DNA of 64,000 bases from Chiloscyllium plagiosum (lineage: Eukaryota): contig NC_057717.1 of NCBI RefSeq assembly GCF_004010195.1, positions 105,003,904-105,067,903 on the forward strand, given 5' to 3'. The notes below the pieces were generated by a model that was given only the letters and a program-made list of their open reading frames with translations, searched no databases and was not told the origin of the DNA. A program made the translations under genes and the position numbers. Shown here piece by piece: positions 16,770-54,985 of the stretch. Positions within the stretch are counted from its first letter, which is position 1. Each line of letters begins with the position of its first letter.

Positions 16770-17345
16770 TCCATAAGACATAAAACAAGAATATGCTGTT
16801 CAGTTCATTGAACTTGCTCCATCATTCAAGAGGTTCACTGTTGATCTGATCACAATCTTTGCTTTCCTATGCTGCTTGTACCCCAACATAATCCTCAACT
16901 CCCTCGTCGATCAAAAACCTGTCTAACATAGCCATGATTCTGGATTAGTGGTGGTGGAAGAGCACAGCAGTTCAGGCAGCATCCAAGGAGCAGTAAAATC
17001 GACGTTTGGGGGAAAAGCCCTTGCCCGAAACGTCAATTTTACTGCTCCTTGGATGCTGCCTGAACTGCTGTGCTCTTCCAGCACCACTAATCCAGAATCT
17101 GGTTTCCAGCATCTGCAGTCATTGTTTTTACCTAACATAGCCATGAATATATTAAATGGCTCAGTCTCCACTGACCTCTAGGGAAGAGAATTCCAAAGAT
17201 TAATGACTCTAAGAGAAAAAAAATTCTCTTCATCTGTCTTAAAAGAGTGATCCCTTATTTTTAAACTGGGTCAACAGTTCTAGATTTCCCCACAAGTGCA
17301 CACATCCTCTCTGCATCTACCCTGCCAGGATTCTTAGAACCTTAC
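16770..17345 (-). mobile_element. CR1 3' fragment interrupted by a Penelope fold-back insertion
   Basis: cataagacata tail; CR1 3' sequence is continuous across the TSD. Confidence 0.7.
16938..17131. mobile_element. Penelope-derived fold-back (inverted pLTR) insertion A
   Basis: 15-bp TSD ctaacatagccatga (16923-16937 / 17132-17146); arms ~16936-17010 and ~17021-17099 are reverse complements; unpaired 32-nt tail. Confidence 0.9.
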
Positions 17346-17349
17346 ATGT

Positions 17350-17920
17350 TTAATTTGATTTGATTTGATTTCATTACATTCCATTTCATTTATTATTGTC
17401 ACATACCTAGTTACAGTGAAAAGTTTGTTTTGCATGCAGTTCAGGTAGAAAAGGGTATGAGGGTGCAAAGTGTATAAAGGTAATAGAACAGAGTGAGGAA
17501 TTCAATGTTATGGCTGCAGAAAATCTGCATAAACAGTGAGATCAACATTAAATTTAAAATTTAAGAGGTCCATTCAGAAGTCTAATAACAGCAGTGAAGA
17601 AGCTGTTCTTGAATCTGTTGGTACATGTATGTAAGTTTTTGTATGTTCTGTTCAACGGAAGAGGTTGGAAGAAATTATAACCGGGGTGGGAAGGGTCTTT
17701 GATTATGTTTGTTGCCTTTCTGAGGCTGTGAGAACTACAGTTGAAATCAATGGATGGAAGGTTGGCATGCATGATGGACTGAACTGAGTTCACAACTCTG
17801 CAGTTTCTTTTGTATGTTCTGCTCTTCCTGGGCAGAGGAGCTGCCAAACCAAGCTGTGATGCATCCAGATAGAATGCTTTCTAATAATGCACCTATAAAA
17901 GCTGGTAAGTCTTTATAGAC
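17350..17920 (-). mobile_element. Rex1/Babar LINE 3' fragment
   Basis: Minus peptide 'KATNIIKDPSHPGYNFFQPLP...TNRFKNSFF..VIRLLN'; (tttga)n tail and tttattattgtcacat. Confidence 0.85.
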
Positions 17921-18559
17921 CTGCGAAAAGAAATGGAACAGCTTTGGTGTAGTATCCAAAACAAATCCCTAGTACAGTACTGAAAACACCATTCGTATAA
18001 TACCCTAGAGTTTCTATACCTGAAATGCTTCTGGTCTGGAACTAACACTAACTCTTCAATCTAATTCACTATCTCTATCATTCCCTTGTCAGAAGCACTG
18101 TTGTATACAGCCATCCTGTTCCAAGACCTTCACAGGACCAAATACACTAACAAAAAAAAAGTTTGCATCATCTGTGCCATGACATCTGTTAGATCAACCA
18201 TGGCCTAATCCATTAGCTTTGTTTAAAAACAGCAGCAGAACAAATTTCAAGTTGATGTACTTAAGGACCTGACAAAGAATGACCTACCATCAGTTATTGC
18301 CTCACAACCAACCTGGCAATGTTCAATAAACAGGAATCATTTAATTTCTGAGCACATGACCCTTCCTTATACTTATCATAAATAGTACTCAAGGAGATTT
18401 TAAGTTTCTCTGCCAGGAAGCAAGAACAACCAGGAGTTCTAAAACCTACTTTATCCTAAGCACAAGATGTTCCTAAACTGGAAACACCAACTTCAGAATC
18501 TCCGCCAGAGGCTCAATCCTAACATTGAGTGTCCTTGACCACATTCTCAGTATACTACT

Positions 18560-18843
18560 CAAAGTTTGTGCGAAGATTTGTAGTGTACAAAATACCATGC
18601 AAGGATTGCACAAAACACTATATAGGACAAACAGGAAGACAGCTAACATCGACTTGGACCCAATATACCAACCACTACAGCGGACAGCTGAAACTGACAA
18701 CTGGAGGCGGCAGGGACAGACCACTATAAACACCAGAGGAAACATCAAAGAAGCGCTTTGCAGGAGGCTCCCAAGCACTGATGATGTCGCCTAGCCAGGG
18801 GACGAAACGTTTGCAACAAAAACTTCCAGCTCGGCGAACAGAA
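18560..18843 (+). mobile_element. Internally deleted Penelope element with GIY-YIG endonuclease remnant
   Basis: 'VVYKIPCKDCTKHYIGQTGRQL' (GIY-YIG) and 'IDLDPIYQPL'; 13-bp TSD tcagtatactact (18547-18559 / 18844-18856). Confidence 0.9.
18773..18816 (+). ncRNA. Minimal type I hammerhead ribozyme motif
   Basis: gca-CTGATGA (18778-18784), stem II gtcgcct/aggggac, GAAAC (18804-18808), GTT, then tgc closing stem I. Confidence 0.75.
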
Positions 18844-19044
18844 TCAGTATACTACTAGTCACCATCACAACTGAAGGGCAACATGAGGTTGAAAAAGCCA
18901 TCTCAGAGCTGAGAACCACCAAGTCTGCCAGCACAGACAGAATCAATGCTGAAACAGTAACATATGGCAGAGAAACACTCTTGGCTCATACTCATAATAT
19001 TCCTCAACTGGAAGGAGGACAGTATGCCAGAGGATCTCTGAGAC

Positions 19045-19665
19045 GTATTTTTTTAAAATATTCATTAGTGGGATATGGGCATCGCTGGCTGGCCAGCATT
19101 TATTACTCACCCCTAGTTGCCCTTGAGAAGGTTGTGGTGAGCTACCTTCTTAACTGCTGTAGTCCACCTGCTGTGGGTTGGCTCACAATGCCATTAAGGA
19201 GGGAATTCCAGGATTTTGACCTAGCAACAGTGAAGGAATGGCGATATATTTCCAAATCAGGATGGTGAGTGGTTTGGAGGGGAACTTGAAGGTGGTGGTG
19301 TTCCCACATACCTGCTGCCCTTGTCCTTCTGAATGGAAGTGCATGTGGGTTTGGAAGGTGCTGTCTGTGGATCTATGGTGAATTTCTGCAGTGCATCTTG
19401 TAGATAATAAACCCTGCTGCTACTGAGGGTCCGTGGTGGAGGGAGTAGATGGTTGTCGATGTAGGGACAATCAAATGGGCTGCTTTGTCCTGGATGGTAT
19501 CAACTTTCTTGAGTGTTGTTGGGACTGCACCTCCAGGGAAAGTGGGGAGTATTTCATGACGTGTGCCTTGTAGATGGTGGACAGGCTTTGAGGAGTCAGG
19601 AGATGTTTTACTCATCACAGTATTCCTAACCTCTTCTAGCCACTGCGTTTACGTGGTGAGTCCAT
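19045..19665 (-). mobile_element. CR1/L2-group LINE 3' fragment
   Basis: Minus peptide 'TTLKKVDTIQDKAAHLI...SLHH..SVAA..IIYKMHCRNSP'; A-rich tail. Confidence 0.85.
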
Positions 19666-21107
19666 GTTGTGATCATCTTCAAAAAGGGAGAGAAAATTAA
19701 TCAAGCTAATTAAAAAAGGTTATCCCTACTATTTGCCACTGAAAACATCATTTCAAAAATCCTTCTCAATTGTCTCTTCCAGTGACTGAAGACCTCCTCC
19801 TTGAGTTATGAATATGTTTTTCATTGATCAAGAGGCATATTGGACATGAATTTCACAGCAAGGCAAATTGAACAGAAAAGTTCAGCGAGAAGCAGCAATT
19901 TTATATATGGCCTGTTTTGACCTCACCAAGGCCTTCAAACTCTAACAACTGGGAAAATGTGGAGTGCCTTCCTCAAATGTGACTGCCTGCAGAAATCCAT
20001 GATCATCCTCTGCCTGCTGCACTATGGCATTCACAGAAATATGACAGAATGGGCCTGAGGTACAATCTACCAGCCTGTACCAATCTGCTGCACAACATTA
20101 TCTGTTCCTTACCTCCCCACTACCAAGATCCATGGTGAGCCACTAGATAATATGAATCAATTACAATATCTTGGGTCCTTCTGTGAGGGCAGATATTAAT
20201 CATGAAAATCAACATCACCTCCAGTGTGCCTGCAGAGCTTCTGGCTATTTAGAAAAGGACAGGTGCTCCAATATCAGTGAACTCTCTCTAGCCAAAATTC
20301 CTCCTATTAAGACATTGGTTAGTTATTCAGCTGTATTGGGAAGGCCACAGCATCCTCACACCTGACAAAACAGTTTCAAAACAAGCTCTCTACTCCAAGT
20401 TCCATTATAGCAAGCACCACCAGGCAGCATAATGTCTAATTTTCTTTCCATCTGTGCTGGTCTCTGAGGTCCTTGCACAGCAGTAGCTTCTAGAACTGCA
20501 AGTCAATTCCACGGCTGACATGCTGACACTGATCACCATGGTGGAACCTAACTTAGAGGGGATATTGCTACCAGGCCAGCAGAGGAAACTTCTCCTTCAA
20601 GGATATCTTTAAAATTTCTGCAACAAAGTGCAATAATACCACTGACTCTTGTCTAAGACCACACAAACTGGAGAAGAAAAATCTCAAAGGTATGTACACC
20701 CTGACAGGCCAGATAAATGTCAAGCACAATGTCAGAAGAAGAGTGGAAAAACTCAAGCATCCCATATACCAACATTGCCAAACAATACCTGCACCAACTG
20801 TGACAGTGTGTGTGGACCCAGCATTGTGCTATTTAGTCACCTCAGAATTCACCATACCAGTGTGGGAGAAAGTCATCCTCAATCCTGAAGAACTGCCTCA
20901 GAAGAAAATGAACATTATATTCTGAATGTCCTGCTATTACTTCCCTGTTAATCGATTCCAGCATTTGTCCAAGGGCAGATGTTAGGCTAACCAGCTTAAA
21001 GTTTAGACATTGACAATAAACATTGGCCTTGTCATCAACACCCATATCCCATGAATGAAAGAAGAAATTTTCTTCAATTAACTTCATACAATATATGTAT
21101 GAAGGGA

Positions 21108-21150
21108 AGGGAAGAGATAAGATAGTACAGGGAAGAGATAAGATAGTACA
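21108..21150. repeat. 21-bp tandem duplication
   Basis: agggaagagataagatagtac x2. Confidence 0.9.
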
Positions 21151-21699
21151 TTTGTACTCCAATCAAGGGTGTAATACGAGGAAATAAAGACAATCCTTGC
21201 ATGTCTAGCACATGGGTACAAATGCAGCTTCCCCTCTCTGCAGGTTCTAAAGGCATTCTCCATTTAAGCACCAAACTGTCATCTAATACTGTTTCACTCT
21301 TTTATGCCTATATTTAATGGAACAGTGTATCAGATATTAATGGGCACAACTACATGTGGTCAATCTGGTAGCAGGATTCCTGTAACCCATGAGGATAAGG
21401 TTTCCACTTAACATTGAATTAAGTCAAATTTGCAAGTTTAGATTCTTGATCTGTAGCCAGTGAGGAGAGAATCACATGCTTGCAGTTTTAATTTTTAAAT
21501 GTAAAAATGCAATTAAGATATCTGTTTAATGAGTCTGAGTAATTCTAAATCCAAATCCCACTGGATGTTGGCCTACAGCACAAAACAGAGCAAAATGTCT
21601 TCCGAGACCAAAAGTATGGCTGCTTTTGAAAATGAACATATCATACCAGAGAAAATTACTATTATTATATACTAGCTTCACTCACCACCCAGTATTTAA

Positions 21700-22055
21700 T
21701 CAAGGCCAAAATTCCAACACTGTGCTGCATAATAATACTGTACAAGTGCTGCACATTTGGATGTGGGGTCTTTTAGATGATATATTAAACTGGAGCACTG
21801 CCTGCTTCTCAGATTAATGCAAAAGATTCCACCCTACTAGGAAAAAATATCAGAGCTCTTTTGGTATCCTATGTACATCATTAAAATCAAATAATTCCCA
21901 TCATTAATCTGATTCCTGTTTGTGGAACTTGGCTGTGCAAAAAGGTGTTGCACGTTTGCCTTCACTATAAGAGCAACTAGACTTTAAAAAGTATTATATT
22001 GGCTGTGAAGTGTTCTGAAAGTCAAAAACAGTATTTGATTAAATGCATTTCTTTG
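21700..22055 (+). mobile_element. Old DeuSINE (SacSINE1/AmnSINE1-like) copy
   Basis: ttagatgatatattaaactgg...ctgtttgtggaacttggctgtgc...attggctgtgaagtg. Confidence 0.6.
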
Positions 22056-23919
22056 TTCCTTTCTTATGGATCTCACATCGTAATGGCATTTTATAAGATT
22101 GTTATACCATCTAGTGCACAAGGCCATACTCCACCTAAACTAAAGTTATGCTTGAGCAAGTCACTTTCAGCAAGGTAACAAAGCAGAAACACTCAAAAGG
22201 TACATTCTTAACTTTGATTTGTAAAGGACAGCCACTTGTGAATCCCAATCTCCTGATCAGAAAAAGCCAAGCTGGAAGTTTTATTCCTACTTCAAAAATA
22301 AAATTCTCCTTTTCTGGCAAATTTTTAACCTGCTCAACTGTTAATATTTTACTAGCATGATACCTAAACAACACGCAAGTGTATTGAGGTGTGATATTTT
22401 TCGACTAAGGTTACAATTTTAAAATTCTCTCCCACCTGTAATTGGAAGTTATTTAATCCTAACTTCCTGGGCTGCACTCTCATTGCTTGTTTTACAAGCT
22501 GATGAATATTGACTTAAATGGAAAGTAGTATTGGGCATGGTGTAAAACCGTTCAAATCAATCATCAGTTTCTTGAAGGGTGGCTTAGTTTATACTTGCTC
22601 CCACACCTATGTGTTGGTCTCCCTATCCGTAACCTTTTGACCTGAACATTAATGTCCATGAGATAAGACGGCAGGAGAGGGTAAAATAGTGAACTATAAG
22701 GAATATGAACCCAGCTTCCTGCATATACATTCCCAGCTGCTTTATGGCAGTGAATATTTCACTGCCCTCCTGTGCAGAAGTGGGTCACTTAATTAATATA
22801 TTTAAATTTGGTTTCCACAGTACAACTGGGAGATCATTTGAAATTTTTGCTGCTGTATTTTCCAGGTGTTGGGAAACTAGATTGCTAAGAGGAAACTGGG
22901 AGCTGCAATCTTTTGTGGATCAGGAAGAGCTCTTCCCAGGGTGTACAAGAATGCCTTTGGTTTCCTCCAGCCCCAATTATCATTCTGCCCCAACTATCAT
23001 GATCACGGGCTTCTCCAAACTCCTCAATGCAGACTCCTACAATCGTGGCCTTCTCCCAAACTGCTGTTTGTTGGGGAACATTCCCAGGACTGTGCATCTT
23101 GTCTCTCTCAAAAGCTCAACAATTTTATCCAGAGGCTGAATAGCCTAACCCTGTTCATGTGTATCTATCTCATCAACCACCGACACCGAGATATCATCAA
23201 CTCTGTAACATTGCCCATTGGTCCCCCTAGCAATTCAATACCAAGAATTTACTGCACGTGTTTACAACTTCAGGTGTTCTTTTGTTGCCTTCAACTTCCA
23301 ACCTCCATAAATTACAATATATGCAGAACACTGTGTCCCACACGTTGTCAAACAGAAAGATCAACAGTCTTATTATTCCACTAGCCAAATTTCAATAGCT
23401 TCATCTACTACAATGACCTGATTATTAGATTCTTATTCACTTGTTCATATTTGTCTATGGAGTTAATATTGCAGGTCCTTAGTAGCATTATGGCGCTAAG
23501 CCAGTCTGAGGGGTCATCAAGTGCCATGGGCACTCATTCCTCCCATGTTCAAGAGCAGCATGCTTCCTGAAGGTTCTCAGCTGATGTGTCTGCTATACGG
23601 TTAATACACAGAGACCTGCCCTGAGAGTTGATGATTGCACTACATTTCTCTTTCCAGTTATTTCAATCTTAAAAATCATTAAACTTTAAATCAAGTGGAC
23701 AGCACAGTGTATGCCACTTCAGAAGTTTATTAAAATAGCATGGTTCTAAATTACATAGCGGTCAATAATGCATACAAAATTGGGAAAACGTAGAAAATGA
23801 AGATATGAAATGCCATAATCTTTAGCCCTCTTTATGGGTCAATGATAACCAGAGCTATAGGTTAAAATGACTAAGTAAATAAAGCACTGTTGCCTTAACA
23901 ATCTCAATGCACTTCTGAC

Positions 23920-24400
23920 CAGCCTGACTTGTTGCACCATCAATAAACTTGAGGACATTCGAGACTCTGATGCCAGATCCTAACTTGTACTAAGTCCTGA
24001 TCCTTTATCAACCCACTCTTGCTGATTATATTGACTTCTAACTAAGTAATGACCTGATATTAAAATTATTATTCCAGTTTTCAGATACCTCCACTTTTCC
24101 TGCCTTTGTTACCATCTTCCAATTACCAACCTCAGAGGTGTTTGCGCTCAACTCTGGCATTTTAAACACCCCGGATTTTAATCATTCTTGCTATTGCAGA
24201 AGCCACGCCTTCAATTGCAAGGCCCCTGAACTCTGGCATTTCCTATACACTCATCTCTATCTCTCTTCTTCTCATTTCTTATTTTAAATCTGTTTGACCA
24301 AACCTTTGATCACATGTCCTAATATCCCATTATATGGCACAATGAATTGCCTAAAGATATTTTACTACGTTAAATGCGCTACATGAAAATACAAATGTCA
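23920..24400 (+). mobile_element. Old L2-like LINE 3' end
   Basis: L2-like 3' terminus ttttactacgttaaatgcgctacat; highly diverged. Confidence 0.5.
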
Positions 24401-27400
24401 TACATGTGCCTTCGTTAAATTGTCTTCACAATTCTACAACATTGCCAGTGTTTTAAAAAACTGGCATTTATAACCAGCTGCTACTATATCCTGGGTTTTG
24501 TGTGTCATTACGGAGCTATCCACTGAAGTATTTGTCAGAAAAAGGTGTTCAGTTGCTTGGTACAGGCAGCATTCCATCTCATTACCACACAGCCCAGTTA
24601 CACAGATATTATATTTTAACATAATTAACCTTGGATATTAGCTCTTATTAAGTTCTGCTGGGTACAATATTCTCCCCATATTATCCAAATTTTACATTCC
24701 TGTATATTAATCATTTCTACCATTATCTACTTCTGAATCCTGTCAGTCACTGCACCAATGATGTTAATCACTATTTTTCATGATGACCAAAGACATCCTC
24801 ACCCATGCAGCCAACTCACTGTTAAAAGATGGCAGCCAAATTTTAACAGAATGCAATGAGAAAAACAAATTACACTGCATACATTACAGTATACAAAGGC
24901 ATAGCAGGTTGGGGGAAGATTACAGAGCACCACAAGTCTCTAGTAGATTTGGTGTTTCTATCATTGCTATGTCATTAAATCTTTAAATATACTGTCTTAG
25001 AAAACTAGGATTGCTGGAAAGTTGTTATTTATTATTTCTCATCCAGTATAACCAATATGGACTTACAATTTAAAAACATCTTCAACATACGAGTATCCCA
25101 AAGAACTTCAAGATTATTTCAAAGATACTGCACAGGAAAGCCATGGAGCACAGATACTTAAAAGTGGAGACTTTGAGAAAGCAGATAGCTCCTGTAGTAC
25201 AGTAGAAAAATGGGGTGATGGAAACACATCAGTTTGGAATAGAATGTATAATAAACAGTAAATGTTTGCATAAATTTATATTTTCCTTTGGTTCAGGATT
25301 TGTGTATTACTGAAAAAAACATTTTGTCAAAACATTATGTATTGCACTCATCAGGCCAATTCACAAGAATATCAATTTAAGGGGAGAACCAATATTTATA
25401 CTGTATGAGAGAAGAATATTGTTTGATTAACAAGTGGACTCTGGTGGGGTTTTATTGTGGAAATTGCAGCAGTTAATAACGATTGATAATCTACTCCCAG
25501 GTAGCCACGCAAATGTATTTTTTTTTAAGCAAAACTCAGATTGAAATTTATGAAGAAAAGGAGATCTGTCAGAAGTCGATATGGACAATGTTATGAATAA
25601 GGAATTTTTGACGAATATATATTGGAATTACCAGAAATTTAAAAGTACTGCAAAATTCCCAGTGACATATAGTCTGTTATTTCCCTATTTTTTGGCATCA
25701 AAGCACAAAATGCTTTCTGTCCTTGTCTCTCAATTTGCATACACCCCTCCTACCCCACATTCTCTCCTCTCCCAAATATACTACCTTTTACCAGCAACCA
25801 TCTGGCATTTTACTCAATTTCTATTTTCTTGTGTGCATATCAGCTGATAAATTATCTATGAACATAATACAACCAAATTAATTCTTTACTCAGCTGATAT
25901 CTGCTCATATGCACTTCTCAACACAGTGCATGGGACCAGAAGAAGGATAAAGAACTATGACTAATTGTTCTTCTCTCTAAACACAGGACATTCAGGCTAA
26001 TATGTTCTATAATGAGGCAAGAAAAATGCCTAAAAAGCTCAGCAGATCTGGTAGCATCTGTAGGAAAGGGAAACAGAGTTAATATTCAGTTCGATGACTC
26101 TTCAATCTCCCTCAGTCTTCTAAGCCCCAGTCTGTTTAATCTTTCCTGATAAGTATCTCCGTAACTTAGCTGATAGCAAAGATTTTAAAATATGACCAAT
26201 ACTTCTGGAAAAATATATGTACATCAATTAACCTCATGGAAACAAGCTATTATCACTTCTCACTATAATAAAAATCAGACCTGAAAAGTGGAAAGCAATG
26301 GAAAGATATGGTGAGCAGATAGGCAGTTGATAGATAGGGTTAAGGGATATGTTAAAAAAGGAGATAGTTGAGGGAAGGATTGAGGGATCTGTTGTGAAGT
26401 TGGACAGTGGGGTAGATATCAAAGAAATGTAACATTGTACATAAAAAATTCAACTGATCTCTCAAGTGGTTTGGGGGCTGTGGTTTGTATATCTGGAAAT
26501 TTTGATAAACAATACAGGACAAACTGCAAGTGCTCAGCTTGTGCTTAGTGCTTGGAATATAAATCATTGCCTTAGCATGATCTGACCCTGTTTTGTGGTG
26601 TCCGATTGGACCCCACAAATCCAATCTACATATCACACAGTTTTTAAATATCCAATACTATCTATCTATTTGACTTATCACATGGTTACAGACTGCTAAA
26701 CATGATACATAACCACACTTCATTCTGTGCTGGCAATCTTTAAAAGAAATCCTGAACCTGCAAGGAGTATAAACAGTGAACTGTTTTATGAGAAAATCAA
26801 AAATATCAAAAAATTGGAAACAAATCATTATTCAATTACTGTAAATTGGGAATCTCACCAAATTATAACTAGATTTTAATCCAGGGGTTGCACTAAGCAG
26901 TGTGGAATAAAATACATTAACAGATCTAGAGACAATTCAGAGATAATTACAATTGCACATTCTATGCTTTTATAGACATTCTCTTTCTCATATTTGTTTG
27001 AGTGCATTTTGAAAACATTTCTGTAGCAATATAAAAGATCCTGCAATGAATATTTACATGTAACAATCTAAATACATTGACTGCTAATTTGTGGTTAGTG
27101 ACAAAGCAATACCAATTCACAACTTCAAAAAGTTTTGGAGAGATCTAGTTATCTCTGTGGGGAGAACTTTAGTTCTTGCAAAATTCAACTGATTGTACAG
27201 TATTTTATAGGATTTCCCAGTATTCAGTTGAATTTTATCATTAAGTTGCCAAATACATTAACAATTTCAGACTCCAAACCAAGATATTCAAAAAAACACT
27301 AGTATATTTAAATTGCTTTACAAAAAGTAAAATTAATGTTGTAATATGCATGTGGGGAACGGCAAAAGTAAAAAGATGAGCAAACACTAAAGAAAATGGT

Positions 27401-29880: not shown

Positions 29881-29914
29881 AATCATGTAGAAATACAAAG
29901 ACACCCATTTATAC

Positions 29915-31575
29915 AGACATAGCATAGAAACAGACCCTTCGGTCCAACTTGTCCATACCAGCCAAGTTTCCCAAACTAAACTAGTCCCAGTTACCTGCAT
30001 TTGGCCCATATCCATCTAAACCCTTCCTATTCATGCACCTATCCAAATATCTTTTAAATGTTATAACTGTAGCTGCATCTACCACTTCCTCTGGCAGTTG
30101 ATTCCATATACCAGCCACCCTCTGTGTGAAAAAGTTGTCCCTCATGTCCCTTTTAATTCATCCTCTTCTTACCTTAAAAATATGTCTCTAGTTTTGAAAC
30201 CGCCCCCACCAGAGAAAGACCTTTGCTATTCACCTTATCTATGCCCCTCATGATTTTATAAACCACTAAAAGGTCACTCCTCAACTTCCTACACTCCAGT
30301 GAAAAAGTCCCAATCTATCCAGCCTCTCCTTAAATCTCAAAATCTCCAGTCCTGACAACATCCTGGTAAATCTTTTCTGAATCTTCTCCAATTTAATAGC
30401 ATCCTTCCTATAGCAGAGTGACCAGAACTGATACACAGTACTCCAAAAGTGGCCTCACCAATGTCCTGTACAACCTCAACATAATGTCCAAACTCCTATT
30501 CTCAATGGTGTGAGCAATGAAAGCAAGCATGCTAAACACCTACTCAACCAGCCTGTCTACCTTTGATGCACCTGAACCCCTATGTCTCTCCATTCGACAA
30601 CACTACCCAGGCCCTACCATTAACTGTACAAGTCCTGCCTTTGTTCACTTTACCAAAATGCTTTTCCTCACATTTATTCAAATTAAACTCCATCTGCCAC
30701 TCCTCAGCCCAATGGCCCAATTGATCAAGATACTTTTGTAATCATAGATAATCCTCTTCACTATCAACTATACCCTAGTTCTGGCATCATTTGCAAATTA
30801 TTAACCATTCCTCCTAAATTCTCATCCAAATCATTTGTATAAATGACAAACGACAGCGAACCCAGAACAGATCCCTGCGGAACACTGTTGATCACAGACC
30901 TCCAGTCTGATAAACAATCCTCCCCCACCACCCTCTGACTCCTGCCATCAGCCAATTTTGTATCCAATTGACAAGCTGACCTTGAATCCCATGTGATCTA
31001 ACATTACTAATCAGTCCACCATGCGGAATCTTGTCATAGCTTTACTAAACTCCATATAGACAATGTCTACCACTCTGCCCTTATCAATCTTTTTGGTTAT
31101 ATCCTCAAACAATTCAAGCAAGTTTGTGAGACTTGATTCCCCACACACAAAGTCATGCTGACTATCCCTAATTAGTCCCTGTCTCTCCAAATGTTTGTAA
31201 ATCCTATCTCTCAGAATCCCCTACAGCAACTTACCCACCACAAATGTCAGATTCACCAGTCTATAGTTCCCAGGCTCCTCCTAATAGCCTTTCTTAAATA
31301 AAGGCACAACATTAGCCACCCTCCAGTCCTCCGGTACCTCACCAGTGGCTATAGATGGTGCAAACATCTCTGCTAGGATTCCCACAATTTCTGGGGAGCA
31401 AATTACTGCAGATGCTGGAACCTGTACTGAAAACAACAAATGCTGGAGATCACAACAGGTCAGGCAGCTGACGTCAGCTCTGATGAAGGGTCATTCACCT
31501 AGACTCAAAACATAGATACTGCCTGATCCACTGTGATCTCCAGCATTTGATGCTTCCCATAATTTTTTTCCTAAC
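29915..31575 (-). mobile_element. CR1 (HER1-like) LINE RT plus 3' UTR, decayed
   Basis: Minus peptide 'SQRVVGEDCLSDWRSVINSVPQGSVLGSL.FVIYTNDLD'; 3' end shared with HE1 SINE tail. Confidence 0.9.
31393..31553. mobile_element. Older Penelope fold-back insertion
   Basis: Degraded TSD ttcccacaatttct / ttcccataattttt; arms aaatgctggagatcaca / tgtgatctccagcattt; ctgatgaagggtc core remnant. Confidence 0.75.
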
Positions 31576-32939: not shown

Positions 32940-33450
32940 TAATGATAGAGCCCTAGGGTGTGTTGTGGAGAGATCTGGGGATGCAAGTGCATAGTTCCTT
33001 GAAAGTAGCATCATAGGTAGACAGGGTGGTGAGGAAGGCCTTTGGCATGCTTGGCTTTATCAGTCGGTGTAGGAGTTACGTTATGGCTGTACAAGAGCTG
33101 AAAATGTGTTGCTGGAACAGCGCAGCAAGTCAGGCAGCATCCAGGGAACAGGAGAATTGTCGTTTCGGGCAGGAAGAAGGGCTTATGCCCGAAACGTCGA
33201 TTCTCCTGTTTCCTGGATGCTGCCTGACCTGCTGCGCTGTTCCAGCAACACATTTTCAGCTCTGATCTCCAGCATCTGCAGACCTCACTTTCTCCTCATG
33301 GCTGTACAAGACACTGGTAAGGCCACATTTGGACTACTGCATACAATTCTGGTCACCCTGCTATAGGAAGGATGTTTTTAAATTGGAAAGGATCCAAAAA
33401 AACAAGGGTGTTACTGAGACTGGAGGGTTTGAGTTATAAGGTCAGGCTGG
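32940..33450 (+). mobile_element. CR1 fragment hosting fold-back insertion B
   Basis: 'VRKAFGMLGFI', 'QFWSPCYRKDV'. Confidence 0.8.
33097..33297. mobile_element. Penelope-derived fold-back insertion B
   Basis: 14-bp TSD atggctgtacaaga (33083-33096 / 33298-33311); inverted arms; unpaired tail. Confidence 0.92.
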
Positions 33451-34194: not shown

Positions 34195-34370
34195 ATTTTG
34201 GTTTCAGTTCTTTCATATGTAAATCCCAGAACTTTTATTTTGCTATAAATTCTGTGTCTTACAATCTTATACTCCACAACCACCTGATGAAGGAGCAGCG
34301 CTCCAAAAGCTAGTGCTTCCAAATAAACCTGTTGGACTCTAACCTATTGTTGTGTGATTTTTAACTTTAT
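34195..34370 (+). mobile_element. Terminal repeat of a different PLE family with mutated hammerhead
   Basis: cac-cTGATGA-aggagc agc gctcc-aaaagcta-gtg (GAAA>AAAA) 34281-34315; aataaacctgttggac. Confidence 0.7.
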
Positions 34371-34371
34371 A

Positions 34372-34583
34372 GCTGAAAAAGTGTTGCTGGAAAAGCACAG
34401 CAGGTCAGGCAGCAGCAAGGAGCAGGAGAATCGACATTTCGGGCATGAGCCCTTCTTCAGAAAGAAGGGCTTATGCCCGAAACGTCGATTCTCCTGCTCC
34501 TTGGATGCTGCCTGACGTGCTGTGCTTTTCCAGCAACACTTTTTCAGCTCTGATCTCCAGCATCTGCAGTCCTCACTTTCTCC
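34372..34583. mobile_element. Penelope-derived fold-back insertion C
   Basis: 14-bp TSD tttttaactttata (34358-34371 / 34584-34597); inverted arms. Confidence 0.92.
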
Positions 34584-34924
34584 TTTTTAACTTTATACTC
34601 AGGAATATCCTAATTAATTTCTACTGTATCTATAATATTTCCTCTGATAGCAAATATAAATATAGCCACAAGAAGAAAGCTGGAAGCAGACTGATCTGAA
34701 TTTGACCACATAAAATCTGTATTAAAATTCAACCATGGCTTTCAAAAGAGGAAATAAAATTGCAGGACTATGTGGAAAGGGTCTGACAGTGCAACTAGCT
34801 GAATTGCTGCTGTAGAGAACCAGCATATCACATTGACGAGGTGGCATTTTTCTGTACTACAACCACTGGTTTTAAGTATTCTTTGGAAACTGTGAATATT
34901 GGCTCTCAAATGTGGTCTTTTTAC

Positions 34925-36259: not shown

Positions 36260-36372
36260 AACTTGTGGAGAGAAAAGTTAATGGGTTACTGGACTTGAAC
36301 TTTAACTGTGTTTTTTCTACATAGATGCTGCCAAATCTGCTGAGTTTCTTCAGCAATTTCTGTTTTTGTTTA
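36260..36372 (+). mobile_element. Old Penelope pLTR remnant
   Basis: cttgaactttaactgtg...gatgctgccaaatctgctgagtttcttcagcaatttctg, same architecture as other pLTRs here. Confidence 0.6.
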
Positions 36373-36442
36373 TTACAATTAACTAATTTATTTGGCATTG
36401 GAGGTGTGACAATAGGGTCTGTATCAGCATAATCATTTAGTG

Positions 36443-36726
36443 CATGATGGCACAGTGGTTAGCACTACTGCCTCACAGTGCCAGAGACCCGGGTTCAATT
36501 CCCGCCTCAGGCACCTATCTGTGTGGAGTTTGCATATTCTCCCCTTGTCTGCGTGGGTTTCCTCCCACAATCCAAAAGTGTGTAGGTTAGGTGAATTGGT
36601 CATGCTAAATTGCCCGTAGTGTTAGGTAAATGTAGGGGAATGGGTCTGGGCTGGTTGCTCTTCGGAGGGTCGGTGTGGACTTGTTGGGCCAAAGGGCCTG
36701 TTTCCACACTCTAAGTAATCTAATCT
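36443..36726 (+). mobile_element. HE1-type tRNA-derived SINE (V-SINE)
   Basis: tggcacagtggttagcact...gggttcaattccc; V domain ctgtgtggagtttgca; (ctaat)n tail. Confidence 0.9.
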
Positions 36727-38159: not shown

Positions 38160-40425
38160 TTAGAAGAGGGAGCTGGAGTGATTAACTTGAAATTGACATC
38201 CTTTCCAATATGAGGCCAAATGTTCCCAATAAAATGATATCAAGTGTGCCTTGTACCAGAAGTGCGCATGTGCATCATGGACACTATTTTGGAAACATTC
38301 CAGAGCACCAATAAGCAGGACACTAAGGCACAATATTTCAGCCCAACTTGACATGAAGCTTTGAACATTGCAGATGACGGGTAAAGTGCCAATCAAGCAA
38401 ACTGCTTTGTCCTCAATGATGTCAAGCTTTAAGTAAATCTTTAAATCTGCTGAATTTCTTCAGCAATTTCTGTTTTTGTTTCTTACAAATAACTAATTTA
38501 TTCAGCATTGGAGGTGTGACTCCAGGGTCTCTATCAGCATAATCATTTAGTGAATATACTTTCATAAATTCTCACCTTGTGCAGACAATTTTGAACATTG
38601 GAGTTGCACTCATCCAGTCAAGTGGAGAGTATTCCATCACATCCCTGACTTGTAAATGGTGGATAGGCACTAGGTAAGCATGTGGGGTACTCACTACCTA
38701 ATTCATAGCATCAATTGTTCTTATAGCATAGCATTTATGTGGCTGATCCAGTTCAGTTCTTGGTAATGGAAACCACTCAGATGTTAATAGTGACTCAGCA
38801 AAAGAAATGTCATTGAATGTCAAGGGGTGATAGTTAAGAGTTTCTCTTGTTGGAGATAGTCATTGCCTGGCCCTGTGTGGCACAAATATTACTTGCAACT
38901 TATCTGCCTAAGCCTGGATGCTCTCCAGATCTTGCTGCAAATGTACACATACCTCAGGTGACATGAAAGGTGTTGAAGATTGTAAAATCATCAGCCTTCT
39001 CACTTCTGATCTTATAATGGAGGGTAGGACATTGGTGAAGCAGCTGAATATGGTTGGGTCTAAGACACTGCCCTGAAAGAGCTGAAATATCATTTGTTAG
39101 TTATTGGTTATGGGTTTCCGTTGCTCTCTGTCTTGTAATCTGATTTTGCTATGGTGTAGCTTTATCAGGTTCATACCTCATTTGAGGTACTCCTAGTTCT
39201 GCTCCTGGCATGCCCTCCTGTACTTTTCAGTGAAGCAGGGTTATTCTCCTGGCTTGGTGGTGGTAGGAGAGGGGGGAATATGTTGGGCCATGAGGTTACT
39301 GATGGTAGGTGAATATGATTCTGCTGCTGATGCCTATTTTTGAGTTGCTAGATATGGTCAAAGTCTGTTCCATTTAGGTTATTGGTAGTGACACACAATA
39401 CAACGTTCAAGATGGAACCACATCTTCACAAGGACTGTACAGTAGTATTCCTACTGAAATTGCATCTGCAACAGGTAGATTGTTGAGGACACAATCAAGT
39501 AGATTTTCCCCTGTTATTGTTTCTTTCATTACTTAACACATACCCAAGCTATTTTTCGTCATCTTTTAGGGCAACTCCTTCCCTACTGTTTACAACTGCC
39601 TACCACCTCTAGTGGGTCTGTTCTGCCAGTGGGACAGGACATACACAGGAATGCTAATGTTGGCATCTAGGACATTGTATGATTCTGTGAGTATGACTAT
39701 GTCAGGTTGTTACTTAACCAGTCTGTGGAACAGCTCTCCCAATTTTAATATGTACTCCCAGTTGTTGATAAGAAGGACTTTGCTGTCTTTGGCATTGTCA
39801 TTTCTGGCCTAGGTCAACAGCAGGTGGTCCATCCAATTTCATTCCTTTTGTTATACTTTGTAGCAGTGTGAGACAGCAGAGTGGCATCTTAAGCCATAGC
39901 AGAGGACAGTTAAGAGTAAACCACATTGGTATCATTCTGAGGTCACATGTAGATCAGACTGGGTAAGGACGACTAAAGGCATTAGTGTGTTGGATGGGTT
40001 TTTAACAACAAATGACGGGTTACATTGTTGCAATTAGTCTAACTTTTAATTCCAGATCTTCGTTGACTTCAGATTTCACCACCTGGCATGGTGGAATCAG
40101 ACCATGAGACCATAAGAAAAAGAAACAGGAGCAGGTATTTAGACCCTGGGTCAATTCAATAGGATTGTGGCTGCTCCAGTATTCCTCACATGTATTTTCT
40201 TGGATTTTCCCCATAACCCTTGATATTTCAGCTGATCAAGAATTTATCTATCTCAGCCTTAAATATACCAAAGCAATCTGCCCCCATAGTTCTCTGGCAA
40301 GGAGTTCAAAAGACTCAACCCTCTGAAAGAAGAGACTTCTCCTCATTCAAACCCTATGTCCCCTAAACATTAGCTTGTGGTTCTGGATTAGTAGTCCAGT
40401 GGCATTATCGTGATGCCATCACCTC
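38160..40425 (-). mobile_element. Internally deleted CR1/L2-group LINE with tRNA-like 5' head (same family as 61590-64000)
   Basis: 'QGSVLDPTIFSCFTNVLPSIIRSEV'; APE region 39620-39780 matches 62020-62170; head at 40350-40425; CR1 fragment nested at ~40105-40345. Confidence 0.8.
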
Positions 40426-44471: not shown

Positions 44472-44788
44472 AGATTTAGATTTAGATTACTTACAGTGTG
44501 GAAACAGGCCCTCCGGCCCAACAAGTCCACACCGCCCCGCCGAAGCGCAGCCCACCCATACCCCTACATTTACCCCTTACCTAACACTACGGGCAAGTTA
44601 GCATGGCCAATTCACCTGACCTGCACATCTTTGGACTGTGGGAGGAAACCGGAGCACCCGGAGGAAACCCACGCAGACACGGGGAGAACGTGCAAACTCC
44701 ACACAGTCAGTCGCCTGAGGCGGGAATTGAACCCGGGTCTCTGGCGCTGTGAGGCAGCAGTGCTAACCACTGTGCCACCGTGCCGCCC
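44472..44788 (-). mobile_element. Young HE1-type SINE
   Basis: Intact CpG-rich copy; minus head gggcggcacggtggcacagtgg...gggttcaattccc. Confidence 0.95.
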
Positions 44789-44829
44789 AGTCTTTGTCTT
44801 CAACATTGACAACACAAAAAATGTTCCAA

Positions 44830-46214: not shown

Positions 46215-46503
46215 ATTAGACTAGATTACCTACAGTGTGGAAACAGGCCCTTCGGCCCAACAATTCCACACCAACCCTCCGAAGAGAAACCCATCCGCCC
46301 CATATTTACCCCTGACTAATCCACCTAACACTACCTAGCATGGCCAATTCACCTAACCTGCACATCTTTGGACTGTGGGAGGAAACCCACGCAGACACGG
46401 GGAGAATGTGCAAACTCCACACAGACAATTGTCCAAGGCAGGAATTGAACCTGGGTCCCTGGTGCTGTGAGGCTGCAGTGCTAACCATTGAGCCACCGTG
46501 CCA
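46215..46503 (-). mobile_element. HE1-type SINE
   Basis: Matches 44472-44788. Confidence 0.92.
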
Positions 46504-47661: not shown

Positions 47662-47975
47662 TTTAGATTAGATTACTTACAGTGTGGAAACAGGCCCTTC
47701 AGCCCAACAAGTCCACACCGACCCTCCAAACGCAACCCACCCATTACCCTACATTTACCCCTTTACTTAACACTACGGGCAATTTAACATGGCCAATTCA
47801 CCTGACCTGCACATCTTTGGAGTGTGGGGGGAAACTGGAGCACCCAAAGGAAACCCACGCAGACACGGGGAGAATGTGCAAACTCCACGCAGTCAGTTGC
47901 CTGAGTCGGGAATTGAACCCGGGTCTCTGGCGCTGTGAGGCAGCAGTGCTATCCACTGTGCCACCGTGCCGCCCG
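47662..47975 (-). mobile_element. HE1-type SINE
   Basis: Matches 44472-44788. Confidence 0.93.
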
Positions 47976-48034
47976 TAGTTCTATCATTATGTAGAAAGAC
48001 AGGACAGAGGAATGGGATTAATTGCCCAAATGTT

Positions 48035-48230
48035 TTTCTCTTTCTTTGGGCTCTATCCCCACCTATCGTTTACTCCTCCAGTTTACTCCACTGCATCTTC
48101 TGTACAAAAACCATCCTTTTCCTAGTTACCATCAGTTCTCAACAAGGGTCACTAGACCCAAAACATAAACTATGATTTCTTTCCACAAATGTTGTCAGAC
48201 CTGCTGAGAATTTCCAGCAATTTCTCCTTT
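48035..48230 (+). mobile_element. Penelope pLTR remnant with decayed hammerhead
   Basis: ttctcaacaagggtcactagacccaaaacat...gacctgctgagaatttccagcaatttc. Confidence 0.6.
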
Positions 48231-48249
48231 TGTCGAACATTTCTTTAAT

Positions 48250-49457: not shown

Positions 49458-50211
49458 ATCTGCCTATGAAGCATGAGGATGTTTTACTGTTAAAAGGATA
49501 AATATATGCAAGCTGTTGTTGTTTCAGCTGGATAAAGAACATGTTGTTTTTGTCCATACCAAACATGGGAGTCATGCACTTCTGGATAAAAATATTTGCA
49601 TACTTCTGTTCACCATACTAGGACAGTTTAACAATCATAAAACAATATTGTAGAGATCAATTTCTAGGTTCATGTCATAAGCAATGAGGGCTCAGGTAAA
49701 ATCAATCCTACACAGTCTGCACAATTCAATCCAGAGAACATTGCAGAACACTACAGCAGCAATATCCACAGTGACCACTAGGATAGCTGGTATAGAAAAC
49801 ACCAAGGGACTCTGATGCTATGAAGGTACTTTTGAAGTTTGGGTTATTGCATTATTGTAGCAGGATTCTGTCAGTGTTGTTACCTATCTGAGAATATGTG
49901 ATGTGGACTCTGGCTGCAGACAATGTTTCAATTTCTAGTACTGACCTTGATGAATACAATGATTCATCAATTGGGAAAATCTGAAGCAACTGAATGTATG
50001 TTAGTCAACTAGGTCAGTTATTCACAGAGGAAAACAGCACACTTGGATTTTAAGAACAGTAGTGTTGAAACTAAAGATTCATGAAACTCACCTAGCTGAT
50101 TCAGTACATGTAAGCACTGCAGACTTCACCATCATTTTCTATCCTTCTCAAGTGGCTGGCTCTACACCAGCAATCAATCCTGATGTATCTCATCCAACTA
50201 CACTTCATGCA

Positions 50212-50357
50212 AAACTAAAGCAAAATACTGCAGGTGCAGGAAATTTGAAACAAACACAGTTCTTAAGAGTCATACTGTACTCAAAACATTAACTCTGTTT
50301 CTCTCTCCACAGATGCCGCCATATCTACTGAGCTTCTCCAGCATTCTCTGTGTTTGT
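50212..50357. mobile_element. Old Penelope insertion with inverted tail
   Basis: Degraded TSD tacacttcatgca / tatacttcatgta; aacaaacacag / ctgtgtttgtt inverted. Confidence 0.65.
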
Positions 50358-51162
50358 TATACTTCATGTAGCAGACCAAATAATAAGTAACAAAACACAA
50401 TTTCACATGGGAAGGTCACATTAAAATGAGCCTTTCCTCACACAATTTTTTTCCAGCCACTCAATGGGTAATAAGTGTGATTCCACTTGTTATGTCAGAG
50501 GCTTTAAGGTAGATTTTAGTGATTCTGCTATTCCTATTCTTTTTCTCAACCCAACTTGACTTCCAGTAAAATACACCTCCATAATAGGCGATGATTTCAA
50601 AATATCTTTCTTTCTGAATCTCATCAGAAACTTTCCCAGCCACATAAACTGTATCATAAGGTCTATTACCTGACTCAATATTACCTGACTATTACCTGAC
50701 TTAATTAGCCATTAAAGCTGTCATTTTAATTTTACGCAGATCACTCAATTCTACATTGCAAGTGCATTTATTCACTCAACTATTATAAGAGTTACATACA
50801 ACAGGATAATAGGCTAGTGAAGTTGGCCAGGCTAGCAGAAGTGGAAAAAGTGTTTCAGAGTGTGACAGACAGTAAAACTGCAAAGTGGAACAGGTGAGGG
50901 AGGACAGAACTGGCATTTGTTCAAAGTGTATCAACATCCCTCTGTTGGAACGTGACGGCCCAACTCTCCTTACACACAACAGACAATGCACTCTTGTTGC
51001 ACCATGGAACAAAACTTATCACTTGTATACTACTCAGTAGATATTTCATCCCAAATAAAATCAGTGATGACTAAATAGCCCATAAAATTAGAATACCCTA
51101 TGAGCTGGAACATTAACTTAAATTCAAAGGGACATGCCTTAGAACATAGAACAATACAATTT

Positions 51163-51440
51163 GTGGGCAGCACAGTGGCTAGCACTGCTGCCTCACAGTG
51201 CCAGGGATCCATGTTCGATACCCGCCTCAGGTGACTGTCTGTGTGGAGTTTGCACATTCTCCCTGTGTCTGCGTGGGTTTCCTCCAGATGCTCCGATTTC
51301 CTCCCTCAATCCAAAGATGTGCAGGTTGGTGGATTGGCCATGGGAAATTGACCATAGTGTTAGGTGCACTCGTATAGGGTAGGGGAATGGGCCTGGATGG
51401 GTTACTCTTCAGAGGGTCGGTGTGGACTTGTTGGGCCCAA
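51163..51440 (+). mobile_element. HE1-type SINE truncated at 3' by Penelope
   Basis: gggcagcacagtggct...gttcgatacccgcctcagg; V domain. Confidence 0.9.
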
Positions 51441-52270
51441 TACCGTACAACCCAGATGGCCTCCTTCTTCAAAGACCGCAATTTCCCCCCAGACGTGGTC
51501 GACGATGCCCTCCACCGCATCTCCTCCACTTCCCGCTCCTCCGTCCTTGAGCCCCGCCCCTCCAACCGCCACCAGAACAGAACCCCACTGGTCCTCACCT
51601 ACCACCCCACCAACCTCCATATACAGCGTATCATCCNNNNNNNNNNNNNNNNNNNNNNNNNNNNNNNNNNNNNNNNNNNNNNNNNNNNNNNNNNNNNNNN
51701 NNNNNNNNNNNNNNNNNNNNNNNNNNNNNNNNNNNNNNNNNNNNNNNNNNNNNNNNNNNNNNNNNNNNNNNNNNNNNNNNNNNNNNNNNNNNNNNNNNNN
51801 NNNNNNNNNNNNNNNNNNNNNNNNNNNNNNNNNNNNNNNNNNNNNNNNNNNNNNNNNNNNNNNNNNNNNNNNNNNNNNNNNNNNNNNNNNNNNNNNNNNN
51901 NNNNNNNNNNNNNNNNNNNNNNNNNNNNNNNNNNNNNNNNNNNNNNNNNNNNNNNNNNNNNNNNNNNNNNNNNNNNNNNNNNNNNNNNNNNNNNNNNNNN
52001 NNNNNNNNNNNNNNNNNNNNNNNNNNNNNNNNNNTTCTTCCTGACCTCTCTGCCCCCACCCCACTCCAGCCTATCACCCTCACCTTGACCTCCTTCCATC
52101 TATCGCATTTCCAACGCCCCTCCCCCAAGTCCCTCCTCCCTACCTTTTATCGTAGCCTGCTGGACACACTTTCCTCATTCCTGAAGAAGGGCTTATGCCC
52201 GAAACGTCGATTCTCCTGTTCCTTGGATGCTGCCTGACCTGCTGCGCTTTTCCAGCAACACATTTTCAGC
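51441..52270 (+). mobile_element. 5'-truncated Penelope element (ORF linker, gap, pLTR)
   Basis: 'MASFFKDRNFPPDVVDDAL...RTPLVLTYHPTNLHIQRII'; pLTR hammerhead CTGAAGA 52181-52187, GAAAC-GTC 52201-52208. Confidence 0.88.
51637..52034. other. Assembly gap (398 N)
   Basis: N run. Confidence 1.
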
Positions 52271-52271
52271 C

Positions 52272-54985
52272 AAATCTAATCTAATCTAATACAGTGCAGA
52301 ACCAATCCTTTGGCCCTCGAAGTTGCGCCAACCTGTGAACTAATCTAATCTCATTCCCCAACACTATCCCATCATCATCCATGTGCTTATCCAAGGATTG
52401 TTTAAATCTCCCTAATGTGGCTGAGTTAACTACATTGGCAGGCAGGGCATTCCACGCCCTTACCACTCTCTGAGTAAAGAACCTGCCTCTGACATCTGTC
52501 TTAAATCTATCACCCCTCAATTTGTAGTTATGCCCCTTTGTACAAGCTGACACCATCATCCTAGGAAAAAAACTTTCACTGTCTACACTATCTAATCCTC
52601 TGATCATCTTATATGTCTCTATCAAATCCCCTCTTAACCTTTATTTTTCTAATGAGAACAGACCCATGTCTCTCAGCCTTTCCTCATAAGACCTTCCCTC
52701 TAGACCAGGCAACATCCTGGTAAATCTCCTCTGCACCTTTTCCAATGCTACCACATCCTTCCTATAATGGGGTGACCAGAACTGTACACAATATTCCAAG
52801 TGTGGCCGCACTAGCATTTTGTATAGTTGCAGGATGACATTACGGATCCGGAACTCAATCCCTCTACCAATAAAACCTAACAAACCGTATGCCTTCTTAA
52901 CAGCACTGGAAATGTGTTGCTGGAAAAGCGCAGCAGGTCAGGCAGCATCCAGGGAACAGGAGAATCGACGTTTCGGGCATAAGCCCTTCTTCAGGAATCC
53001 ATGTGCCCTTCCTGAAGAAGGGCTTATGCCCGAAACGTCGATTCTCCTGTTCCCTGGATGCTGCCTGACCTGCTGCACTTTTCCAGCAACACATTTCCAG
53101 CTCTGATCTCCAGCATCTGCAGACCTCACTTTCTCCTCCTTCTTAACAGCACTGTCAACCTGGGTGGCAACTTTCAGGGATCTATGTACATGGACTCCAA
53201 GATCTGCACATTCACACTACCAAGAATATTTCCATTGACCCAGTATTCTGCCTTCCTGTTATTCTTCCCAAAGTGCATCATCTCACATTTATCTGCATTG
53301 AACTCCATTTGCCACCTCTCAGCCTAATTCTGCAGTTATCCAAGTCCCCCTGCAACCTGCAACATTCTTCCACATTGTCCACTACTCCACTGACTTTAAT
53401 GTCATCTGCAAACTTATTAATCCATCCACCTATGCCTGCATCTAAGTAACATATAAAAATGACAAACAGCAGTACTCCCAAAACAGATCCTTGTGGCACG
53501 CCACGAGTAATCAGACTCCAGGCTGAATATTTTTCATCAACTACCACTCGCTGCCTTCTTACAGAAAGCCAGTTTCTAATCCAAACTGCTAAATCACCCT
53601 CAATCCCAAGCCTCTGCATTTTCTCCAACAGCCTACCATGTGAAACATTATCAACGACTTTACTGAAGTCCATGTACACCTTGTCAACTGCCCCACCCTC
53701 ATCCACGTGCTTGGTCACCTTCTCAAAAAACTCAATGAGGTTTGTGAGACACAACCTGCCCTTAACAAAACCATGTTGACTATCTGAAATCAAATTGTTG
53801 CTTGCTAGATGATTATAAACCTTATCTCTTATAATCCTTTCTAAAACTTTTCCTATAATAGACGTAAGGCTCACTGGTCTATAAGTATCTGGGTCATCTA
53901 TATGACCTTCTTGAAAAAGGGCACAACATTTGCAATCCTCCAGTCCTCTGGTACTAAACCTGTAGAGAATGACAAATCAAAGATCAAAGCCAAAGGCTCT
54001 GCCATCTCCTCCCTAGCTTCCCAGAGAATCCTCGGATAAATCCCATCCGGCCCAGGAGACTTGTCTACTTTCACTCTTTCTAGAATTGATAACACCTCTT
54101 CCATACTACCCTTGATCCTTTCTAGTCTAATATCTCATTTCTCATTCCTCTCCTCTACAATATTCTCCTTTTCCTGAGTGAAAACCGATGAGAAATATTC
54201 GTTTAGCACCTCTCCGATCTCCACAGGGTCCACACACAACTTCCCACTTCTGTCTTTGACTGGCCCTACTCCTACCGTAGTCATCCTTTTATTCCTAATA
54301 TACCTATAGAAAGCTTTAGAGTTCTCCTTTATTCTACCTGCTAAAGACTGCTCATGTCCTCTCTTTGCTTTTCTTAACTCTCTCTTTAAACCCTTCCTAG
54401 CTGATCTGTAATTCTCCATCACCGCATCTGAACAATCTTGTCTCATCGTCACATAAGCCTCCTTCTCCCACTTAACAAGAGATGGAATTTCTGTCGTAAA
54501 CCACGGTTCCCTTACCTTATCATTTCCTCCCTGCTTGACAGGGATATACCTATCAAGGACACACAATACCTGTTCCTTAAACCAGCTCGATATTTCGATT
54601 GCCCCCATCCCCTGCATTTTGCTACCCCATTCTATGCATCCTAAGTATTGCCTAATCGCATTATAATTGCCCTTGCCCCATTGATAACTCTTGCCCTGTG
54701 GCATGTACTTATCCCTTTCCATCGCTAAACTAAGCCTAACTGAATTTTGGTCACTCTCTCCAAAGTGCTCACCTACCACTAAAATCAAACAACTGGCCTG
54801 GTTCATTACCAAGCACCAGATCCAGTATAGCCTCCCGTCTTGTTGGCTCTTTGACATACTGTGTCAGGAAACCCTTCTGAACACATTGGACAAAAACTGA
54901 TCCATCTGATGTACTAGAGTTATGGCATTTTCAGTCAATATTGGGGAAGATAAAGTCCCCGTAATGACCACCCTGTTCCTTTCAC
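52272..54985 (-). mobile_element. CR1 LINE ORF2 (APE C-terminus, RT, 3' UTR), pseudogenised
   Basis: ORFs 54135-54857, 53898-54104 'KSPGPDGIYPRIL', 53278-53874 'GVPQGSVLG...KFADD', 52281-52883; (ttaga)n tail. Confidence 0.95.
52909..53137. mobile_element. Penelope-derived fold-back insertion D with complete hammerhead cores on both strands
   Basis: 17-bp TSD ccttcttaacagcactg (52892-52908 / 53138-53154); arms 52906-52997 and 53009-53100; 11-nt spacer. Confidence 0.95.

Follow-up and report, generated by a model that had tools for sequence, protein, structure and literature searches.

A 64,000-nt stretch of Chiloscyllium plagiosum DNA (GCF_004010195.1, NC_057717.1:105,003,904-105,067,903, forward strand; 62,498 called bases), here called the window, contains four young fold-back inserts of about 200 bp. 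Inserts A (16938-17131), B (33097-33297), C (34372-34583) and D (52909-53137) each consist of two stubs of the pseudo-long terminal repeat (pLTR) of a Penelope retroelement. The insert architecture is known: it is the published insertion plan of Penelope-like elements (PLEs), reduced to two pLTR stubs, and not a new class. With moderate confidence, we regard each insert as the dead-on-arrival product of one Penelope integration in which both target strands primed cDNA synthesis. What we report is an ordinary architecture with a modest mechanistic lead.

The window also holds three single-arm copies of the arm family, E, F and G. Element positions are counted from +1, an A located six bases 5' of the stem region of the hammerhead (position 2761 for E, 52177 for F, 60171 for G). 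E served as the reference onto which, together with its flanks, public runs X2 (organism A, DNA), X11 (organism B, DNA) and X21 (RNA) were mapped, while a fourth run, X22, gave 0 reads; the mapping results refer to the 18 of 760 loose-end rows, 15 of 103 joints and 40 of 167 variant rows that were listed.

All four inserts showed the same order of parts: target site duplication (TSD), inverted arm, direct arm, unpaired tail and second TSD copy (Table 1). The total lengths were 194 bp (A), 201 bp (B), 212 bp (C) and 229 bp (D). A single perfect repeat pair of 14-17 bp bordered each of them, as expected for the unit-wide TSD of an endonuclease-bearing (EN+) PLE insertion. As a control, 19,241 pairs of positions were drawn at random with a spacing of 190-235 bp; 6 of them had a border match of at least 13, and the real inserts could be among the draws. 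B and D sit in fragments of long interspersed nuclear elements (LINEs), and for these two tested inserts the duplicated stretch was present as a single copy in an uninterrupted paralog of the host LINE within the window. The arms were 95-97% complementary across 78-97 nt in A, B and D, while in C the complementarity was split into a 44-nt and a 42-nt piece. In 4/4 inserts an inverted, 5'-truncated pLTR stood head to head with the direct one. The tail lay outside the repeat on one side only and fell within the 30-40 nt typical of EN+ insertions; ends of mapped reads piled up at both tail borders in all three runs. Due to this one-sided tail the terminal inverted repeats are asymmetric, other than in a MITE (miniature inverted-repeat transposable element).

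The first-pass annotation of this DNA had described the shared plan with its TSDs and tails, and all coordinates were borne out. It had also proposed a high abundance on the basis of four inserts in ~36 kb. The public runs agreed with high abundance, but the unbiased density is four young fold-backs per 62,498 called bases of the window. Perfect hairpins can be library artefacts, and the assembly has gaps at repeats, one of them inside F. Nevertheless, it is extremely unlikely that each insert combines two separate insertion events or that the assembly is faulty at a repeat, considering that one TSD encloses both arms in 4/4 cases, that the arms differ by several mutations and that the host LINE paralogs align across B and D. 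As a separate observation, all three non-CpG-type changes in the inverted arm of A (16938-17022) are C-to-G on the plus strand.

Table 1. Parts of the four young fold-back inserts and further copies of the family in the window (strand "." where a feature has no orientation).
Feature	Positions	Strand	Description	Method
A left TSD copy	16923-16937	.	15 bp	border repeat search
A inverted arm	16938-17022	-	tail-less pLTR arm, reach +11; 2-nt match to left TSD end; 2 nt common with direct arm at centre	
A direct arm	17021-17099	+	pLTR arm, start +19; subfamily nearer copy G	
A unpaired tail	17100-17131	+	32 nt	
A right TSD copy	17132-17146	.		border repeat search
B left TSD copy	33083-33096	.	14 bp; within old LINE; single in paralog	
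B inverted arm	33097-33171	-	reach +20; 3-nt match to left TSD end; one extra base at 33172	
B direct arm	33173-33263	+	start +7	
B unpaired tail	33264-33297	+	34 nt	
B right TSD copy	33298-33311	.		
C left TSD copy	34358-34371	.	14 bp	
C inverted arm	34372-34460	-	reach +5; 1-nt match to left TSD end; one extra base at 34461	
C direct arm	34462-34549	+	start +8	
C unpaired tail	34550-34583	+	34 nt	
C right TSD copy	34584-34597	.		
D left TSD copy	52892-52908	.	17 bp; within LINE; single in paralog	
D inverted arm	52909-52998	-	reach exactly +1; 3-nt match to left TSD end; complete minimal hammerhead motif	
D filler	52999-53008	.	10 nt, non-element; first base reads as extra G before +1 of inverted arm	
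D direct arm	53009-53100	+	start +2; complete minimal hammerhead motif	
D unpaired tail	53101-53137	+	37 nt	
D right TSD copy	53138-53154	.		
E	2760-2889	+	single direct arm and tail, start ~+1 (+1 = 2761)	
F	51438-52270	+	long 5'-truncated copy; ORF remnant 51438-51637, assembly gap, 3' UTR, tail-less pLTR end; +1 = 52177	
G	60038-60467	-	long tailed copy, subfamily nearer A; last ORF codons, 3' UTR, pLTR; +1 = 60171	
H	31379-31567	-	older fold-back, related family, opposite orientation	

The long copies F and G also carry coding sequence and have the arm sequence as their 3' end. The open reading frame (ORF) remnant of F (55 aa) had five relatives among 10 candidates. The two best were named as Chiloscyllium punctatum proteins with 89% and 80% identity, and the remnant was 80% identical to P0002. 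P0002 and P0003, two of the five relatives, showed GIY-YIG matches below the Pfam curated cut-off (P0002 E 0.0046). By eye, the N-terminal part of P0002 was similar to a reverse transcriptase (RT), and its C-terminus weakly matched the last codons of G (E 0.003). No RT domain was found in the called sequence of the window, and a Pfam search of two ORF remnants of the window gave nothing useful.

A scan for the minimal hammerhead core detected the motif in E, in F, in both arms of D and in the inverted arm of C; it was cut short in the remaining arms. Rfam gave no match at the gathering score. Cleavage by the ribozyme is predicted after +32, and all eight arms reach upstream of this position; the templates were therefore uncleaved. 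We rejected a retrozyme-like element derived from ribozyme-cut RNA, since the arms end at +1 to +20 and the cut is predicted after +32. The direct arm of D plus its tail, folded as RNA, was no better than shuffled sequences (z -0.03). An exact 22-nt arm pattern had no locus in the collections of metagenomes, viruses and prokaryotes. A 20-nt pattern gave 15 metagenome loci, and these were dropped as chance because 15/15 matched over a seed of 19-26 nt only, or weakly to 38 nt. Based on the linkage to F and G, the ORF relatives, the hammerhead scan and the published description of such elements, we assigned the arms to the hammerhead-bearing pLTRs of a Penelope family, probably an endonuclease-bearing one of the GIY-YIG type. 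The Penelope origin proposed in the first-pass annotation is in agreement with the continuation of the arms into the ORF-linked copies and with the presence of the hammerhead motif.

Across 77 aligned columns the two arms of a locus differed at four positions in A, B and C and at one in D. Among the 105 possible pairings of the eight arms the true pairing had the lowest mismatch total (13 vs 17 for the next). The annotation had predicted that the arms of a locus are sisters and had described variants as private to an insert. In a tree of the window copies the arms of A, B and D did pair (bootstrap 74 for B and 75 for D), but those of C did not. The variants were indeed present in both arms; that they are private was not supported, and two markers common to B and D are family-wide polymorphisms in the public runs. 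These two markers lie at 2803 on E (20% in X2, 10% in X11) and at 2807 (6.9% in X2, 0.6% in X11). The alignment is gapped around the markers of C and D, and copies A and G carry the same letter there; within the eight arms of the B-F subfamily these markers are confined to their own locus. In the unpaired tail, a T>A change at 2877 on E goes with the arm markers in B and D and had a frequency of 10.4% in organism A vs 0.8% in organism B. The B/D variants at 2807 and 2877 are about ten times more common in organism A than in organism B, which points to B and D as a young, lineage-enriched subfamily. The joint occurrence of arm and tail markers, with a similar enrichment in organism A at 2807 and 2877, points to inherited source haplotypes. 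As judged by these sequence comparisons, both arms of a locus are derived from one source element, a weaker claim than the derivation from one molecule proposed in the annotation.

The kinship of the arms could also have arisen later, by conversion within the hairpin: the arms would have come from different source RNAs or accrued mutations, and were made alike afterwards. Closely spaced inverted repeats are in general open to template-switch correction, and the three locus markers (of B, C and D) were not among the listed variant rows. Still, we consider this explanation very unlikely. The arms retain 1-4 differences in 77 columns, the joint occurrence of arm and tail markers in B and D points to inherited haplotypes, and in H the divergence of the arms (6/37) matches that of the TSD (2/14), so that no homogenization is seen there.

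The centre was different in 4/4 inserts, as the first-pass annotation had noted. The joint is a 2-nt overlap in A, one extra base in B and in C, and a 10-nt filler in D, for which no source of at least 7 nt was found within 52600-53400. Every centre falls within or next to a motif that can form a hairpin. None of the eight arms passed +1, although F and G run on upstream. At the tail-less outer end the inverted arms matched the end of the left TSD by 1-3 nt (Table 1), and the chance of a summed match of at least 9 over the four junctions was 4e-4.

Mapping to E yielded 77,814 contigs for X2 and 82,624 for X11, and the summed depth was ~2e7 on the arm vs 11-19 in the flank, a ratio that does not equal copy number. 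We concluded that the arm family is very abundant. MITEs are short, hairpin-forming, non-coding and abundant, and the shark inserts share all these properties. A MITE-like or SINE-like (short interspersed nuclear element-like) unit, in which the whole palindrome spreads from few masters, would be in line with this abundance and with the similar size and plan of 4/4 inserts. Furthermore, one table row with a depth of 657 (vs 19 in the flank) indicates that a joint can be common to a small group of loci. We nevertheless give this explanation very little weight. The shark inserts have no symmetric terminal repeats, their TSDs are long, variable and mutually unlike, the centres vary, and the arms are of retroelement origin, being the ends of the long ORF-linked copies. 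Among the listed joints eight changed strand and none was dominant. The deepest of these had depths of 159 (X11, vs 11 in the flank) and 62 (X2, vs 19; joint count incomplete according to the mapping tool). Compared with the arm depth, and with no near-symmetric joint like those of A-D among the ones listed, this is no more than moderate evidence against a spreading unit. Repeat annotation could nonetheless mislabel the stubs as MITEs or hairpin RNA genes.

Loose ends piled up at 2761 (+1) and 2889 (tail end) in X2, X11 and X21, and the agreement of 0.31-0.45 among the rows listed corresponds to diverse flanks. Further piles were seen at 2845-2850, near the tail start, while a pile at 2759 stems from longer copies running on. 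The 3,363 reads of X21 mapped to both strands and 97% continued into unlike sequence; we took them as reads from other loci and not as element transcription. The bases around +1 match the initiator consensus, and both F (-31; 52145-52182) and G (-33; 60166-60204, minus strand) have a T-rich, TATA-like word upstream. The conservation of this word and of an initiator-like +1 in two diverged subfamilies suggests that the pLTR contains a promoter for RNA polymerase II. In both DNA runs the consensus had a G immediately before +1 (C was excluded by construction), 3/3 listed table rows ending at 2761 finished in G, with orientation unstated, and the inverted arm of D also carries a G at this place. 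Such an extra G may be a copied RNA cap. Support for a cap-derived G was sought in the available text of PMC5860796 and PMC4245944 and not found there.

For the favored mechanism we assume the following steps. The GIY-YIG endonuclease would nick both target strands 14-17 bp apart, as judged from the TSDs. Each target 3' end would pair with element RNA by 1-3 nt and prime reverse transcription, one at the tail end (~+130) and the other at the tail start (~+95). The RNA probably begins at +1, just 5' of the hammerhead core, and for this reason both cDNAs would be short. The two cDNAs would then meet head to head, be trimmed by 0-20 nt and be joined through microhomology or with a few bases of filler. 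Two-strand priming followed by trimmed joining would account for the nearly fixed size of ~200 bp, the one-sided tail, the new centre in each insert and the matches at the ends. Whether one RNA was copied twice or two RNAs came from one source is about even. If a single RNA served as template for both cDNAs, strand displacement would be required, and an RT without RNase H would make this plausible. The proposed priming sites at ~+130 and ~+95 match the two internal start sites of the anole Poseidon element in vitro.

A palindrome could also arise without a second primed strand. In this case, a single cDNA started at the tail end would fold back with its 3' end near the hammerhead and copy itself up to the tail start, where the endonuclease would resolve the product. 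Both arms would then literally be one molecule, which explains their kinship directly; this is close to the self-priming idea in the available text of PMC3846280, where palindromes at inverted junctions are read in this way. The position of all centres in or beside a hairpin-forming motif, the longer direct arm of B and the 14-bp perfect palindrome at the centre of H also fit. However, in A, C, D and H it is the inverted arm that extends further 5', by 8, 3, 1 and ~50 nt, respectively. In A and H the tail-less arm thus contains nucleotides without counterpart in the tail-bearing arm, and a simple fold-back copy cannot yield these two inserts without later loss. D has the 10-nt filler and possibly an extra G on the inverted arm. 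The target matches of 1-3 nt at the tail-less outer end fit priming at this site, although end joining could leave them too. We therefore consider fold-back self-priming unlikely. The first-pass annotation had left the choice between priming of both target strands and a fold-back copy. The insert geometry and the target matches fit the former, if indirectly, and the latter was disfavored for A and H. Its view that the palindrome forms de novo at integration, and does not spread as a MITE, is probably correct: arm kinship, target pairing at the outer ends and arm stops within +1 to +20 support formation at integration, and the differing centres, asymmetric ends and long TSDs speak against a MITE.

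Several observations weigh against priming of both strands on a short RNA. Only four young loci were examined. The arms of C are unpaired in the tree, B and D are distinguished by one site each, and a strict column test on 11 arms gave locus-confined states in seven columns for A and one for B, but C and D had no such column. A fold-back copy would explain B just as well, the inverted and direct arms of C and D differ in reach by only 3 and 1 nt, and the unequal reach of A could result from trimming or later deletion. The centre palindrome of H is what self-priming would leave. None of the 15 listed joints was near-symmetric like those of A-D, and the table is possibly blind to such joints. 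With respect to the RNA start, +1 is the base of hammerhead stem I, where a structural stop of the enzyme could mimic a start; the letter before +1 was T in X21; and the piles at 2845-2850 are partly due to an extra base in E.

A bolder version of two-strand priming holds that the ~200-bp fold-backs are the default in vivo product, with a protein dimer priming both nicks at two fixed internal sites near the 5' end of one capped RNA and copying the same ~95 nt twice. We put this forward as a tentative idea, somewhat doubtful at present. If true, the shark genome would be a very large natural record that settles the origin of inverted pLTR and tail in favor of two primed strands over self-priming.

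Among the other copies, the TSD of H (14 bp), a fold-back that the first-pass annotation had not listed, had two mismatches, and the tail-bearing arm of H is much shorter than the tail-less arm. Around E, no TSD was obvious by eye. Its 5' junction is spanned by a contig of organism B (2400-2788), and because of this the insertion of E may be older than the species split. A related, older Penelope family is represented by decayed single ends at 26058 (minus strand), 36298-36369, 38408-38479, 48162-48233 and 50286-50357. An ORF remnant at 18477-18800 ends at a different minimal hammerhead motif (18778) and probably belongs to another Penelope family. Decayed integrase-like frames at 7571-8323 seem, by eye, to come from an LTR retrotransposon. 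A SINE-like repeat of ~300 bp (86-94% identity) is present at 44482-44784, 46222-46502, 47668-47970, 36442-36607 and 51170-51326.

In PMC3846280 the typical structure comprises a direct pLTR, an adjacent inverted pLTR, a 31-bp tail and a TSD, and self-priming is put forward as its origin; PMC8557442 describes the same plan and terms the mechanism undefined. The shark inserts agree with the EN+ insertions of PMC3846280, PMC8557442 and PMC2377424 in that a 5'-truncated inverted pLTR faces the direct one head to head, the tail of 30-40 nt is one-sided and a single TSD surrounds the unit. The published insertions usually keep an ORF between the pLTRs, whereas the shark inserts are two stubs of ~200 bp in total, and their TSDs of 14-17 bp are longer than those of the rotifer insertions (8-10 bp).

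Poseidon of Anolis carolinensis (PMC11167929) is a GIY-YIG Penelope, as the shark family probably is, and like the latter has a hammerhead in the pLTR. According to this source, the purified protein cuts and extends both strands in vitro, is predicted to be a dimer and uses two internal starts that bound the tail; the templates were uncleaved in vitro, and later integration steps were left unvalidated. The start-site distances differ from those of the shark inserts, and the main text of PMC11167929 does not derive inverted pLTRs from two primed strands. The minimal hammerheads of metazoan PLEs (PMC4209133) resemble the shark arms in having a minimal core without helix III in the pLTR. There, motif pairs lie 100-700 bp apart on opposite strands, while in the shark inserts the two motifs meet at the centre or are truncated there.

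For L1, PMC2837659 describes twin priming (one RNA) and dual priming (two RNAs), which give like products that could not be distinguished. As in the mechanism favored here, both nicks prime cDNA and an inverted piece lies within one TSD. L1 twin priming joins two non-overlapping pieces plus poly(A), in contrast to the shark arms, which show the same stretch twice with fixed internal starts. A search by title and start of abstract found no description of the shark stubs or of twin priming applied to inverted pLTRs; this is weak evidence, as subscription papers and repeat databases were largely outside the search. The stubs are the simplest form of the inverted-pLTR structure and very numerous; their junctions, compiled from a good shark assembly, could discriminate two-strand priming from the self-priming proposed for PLEs and, in addition, map the RNA start.

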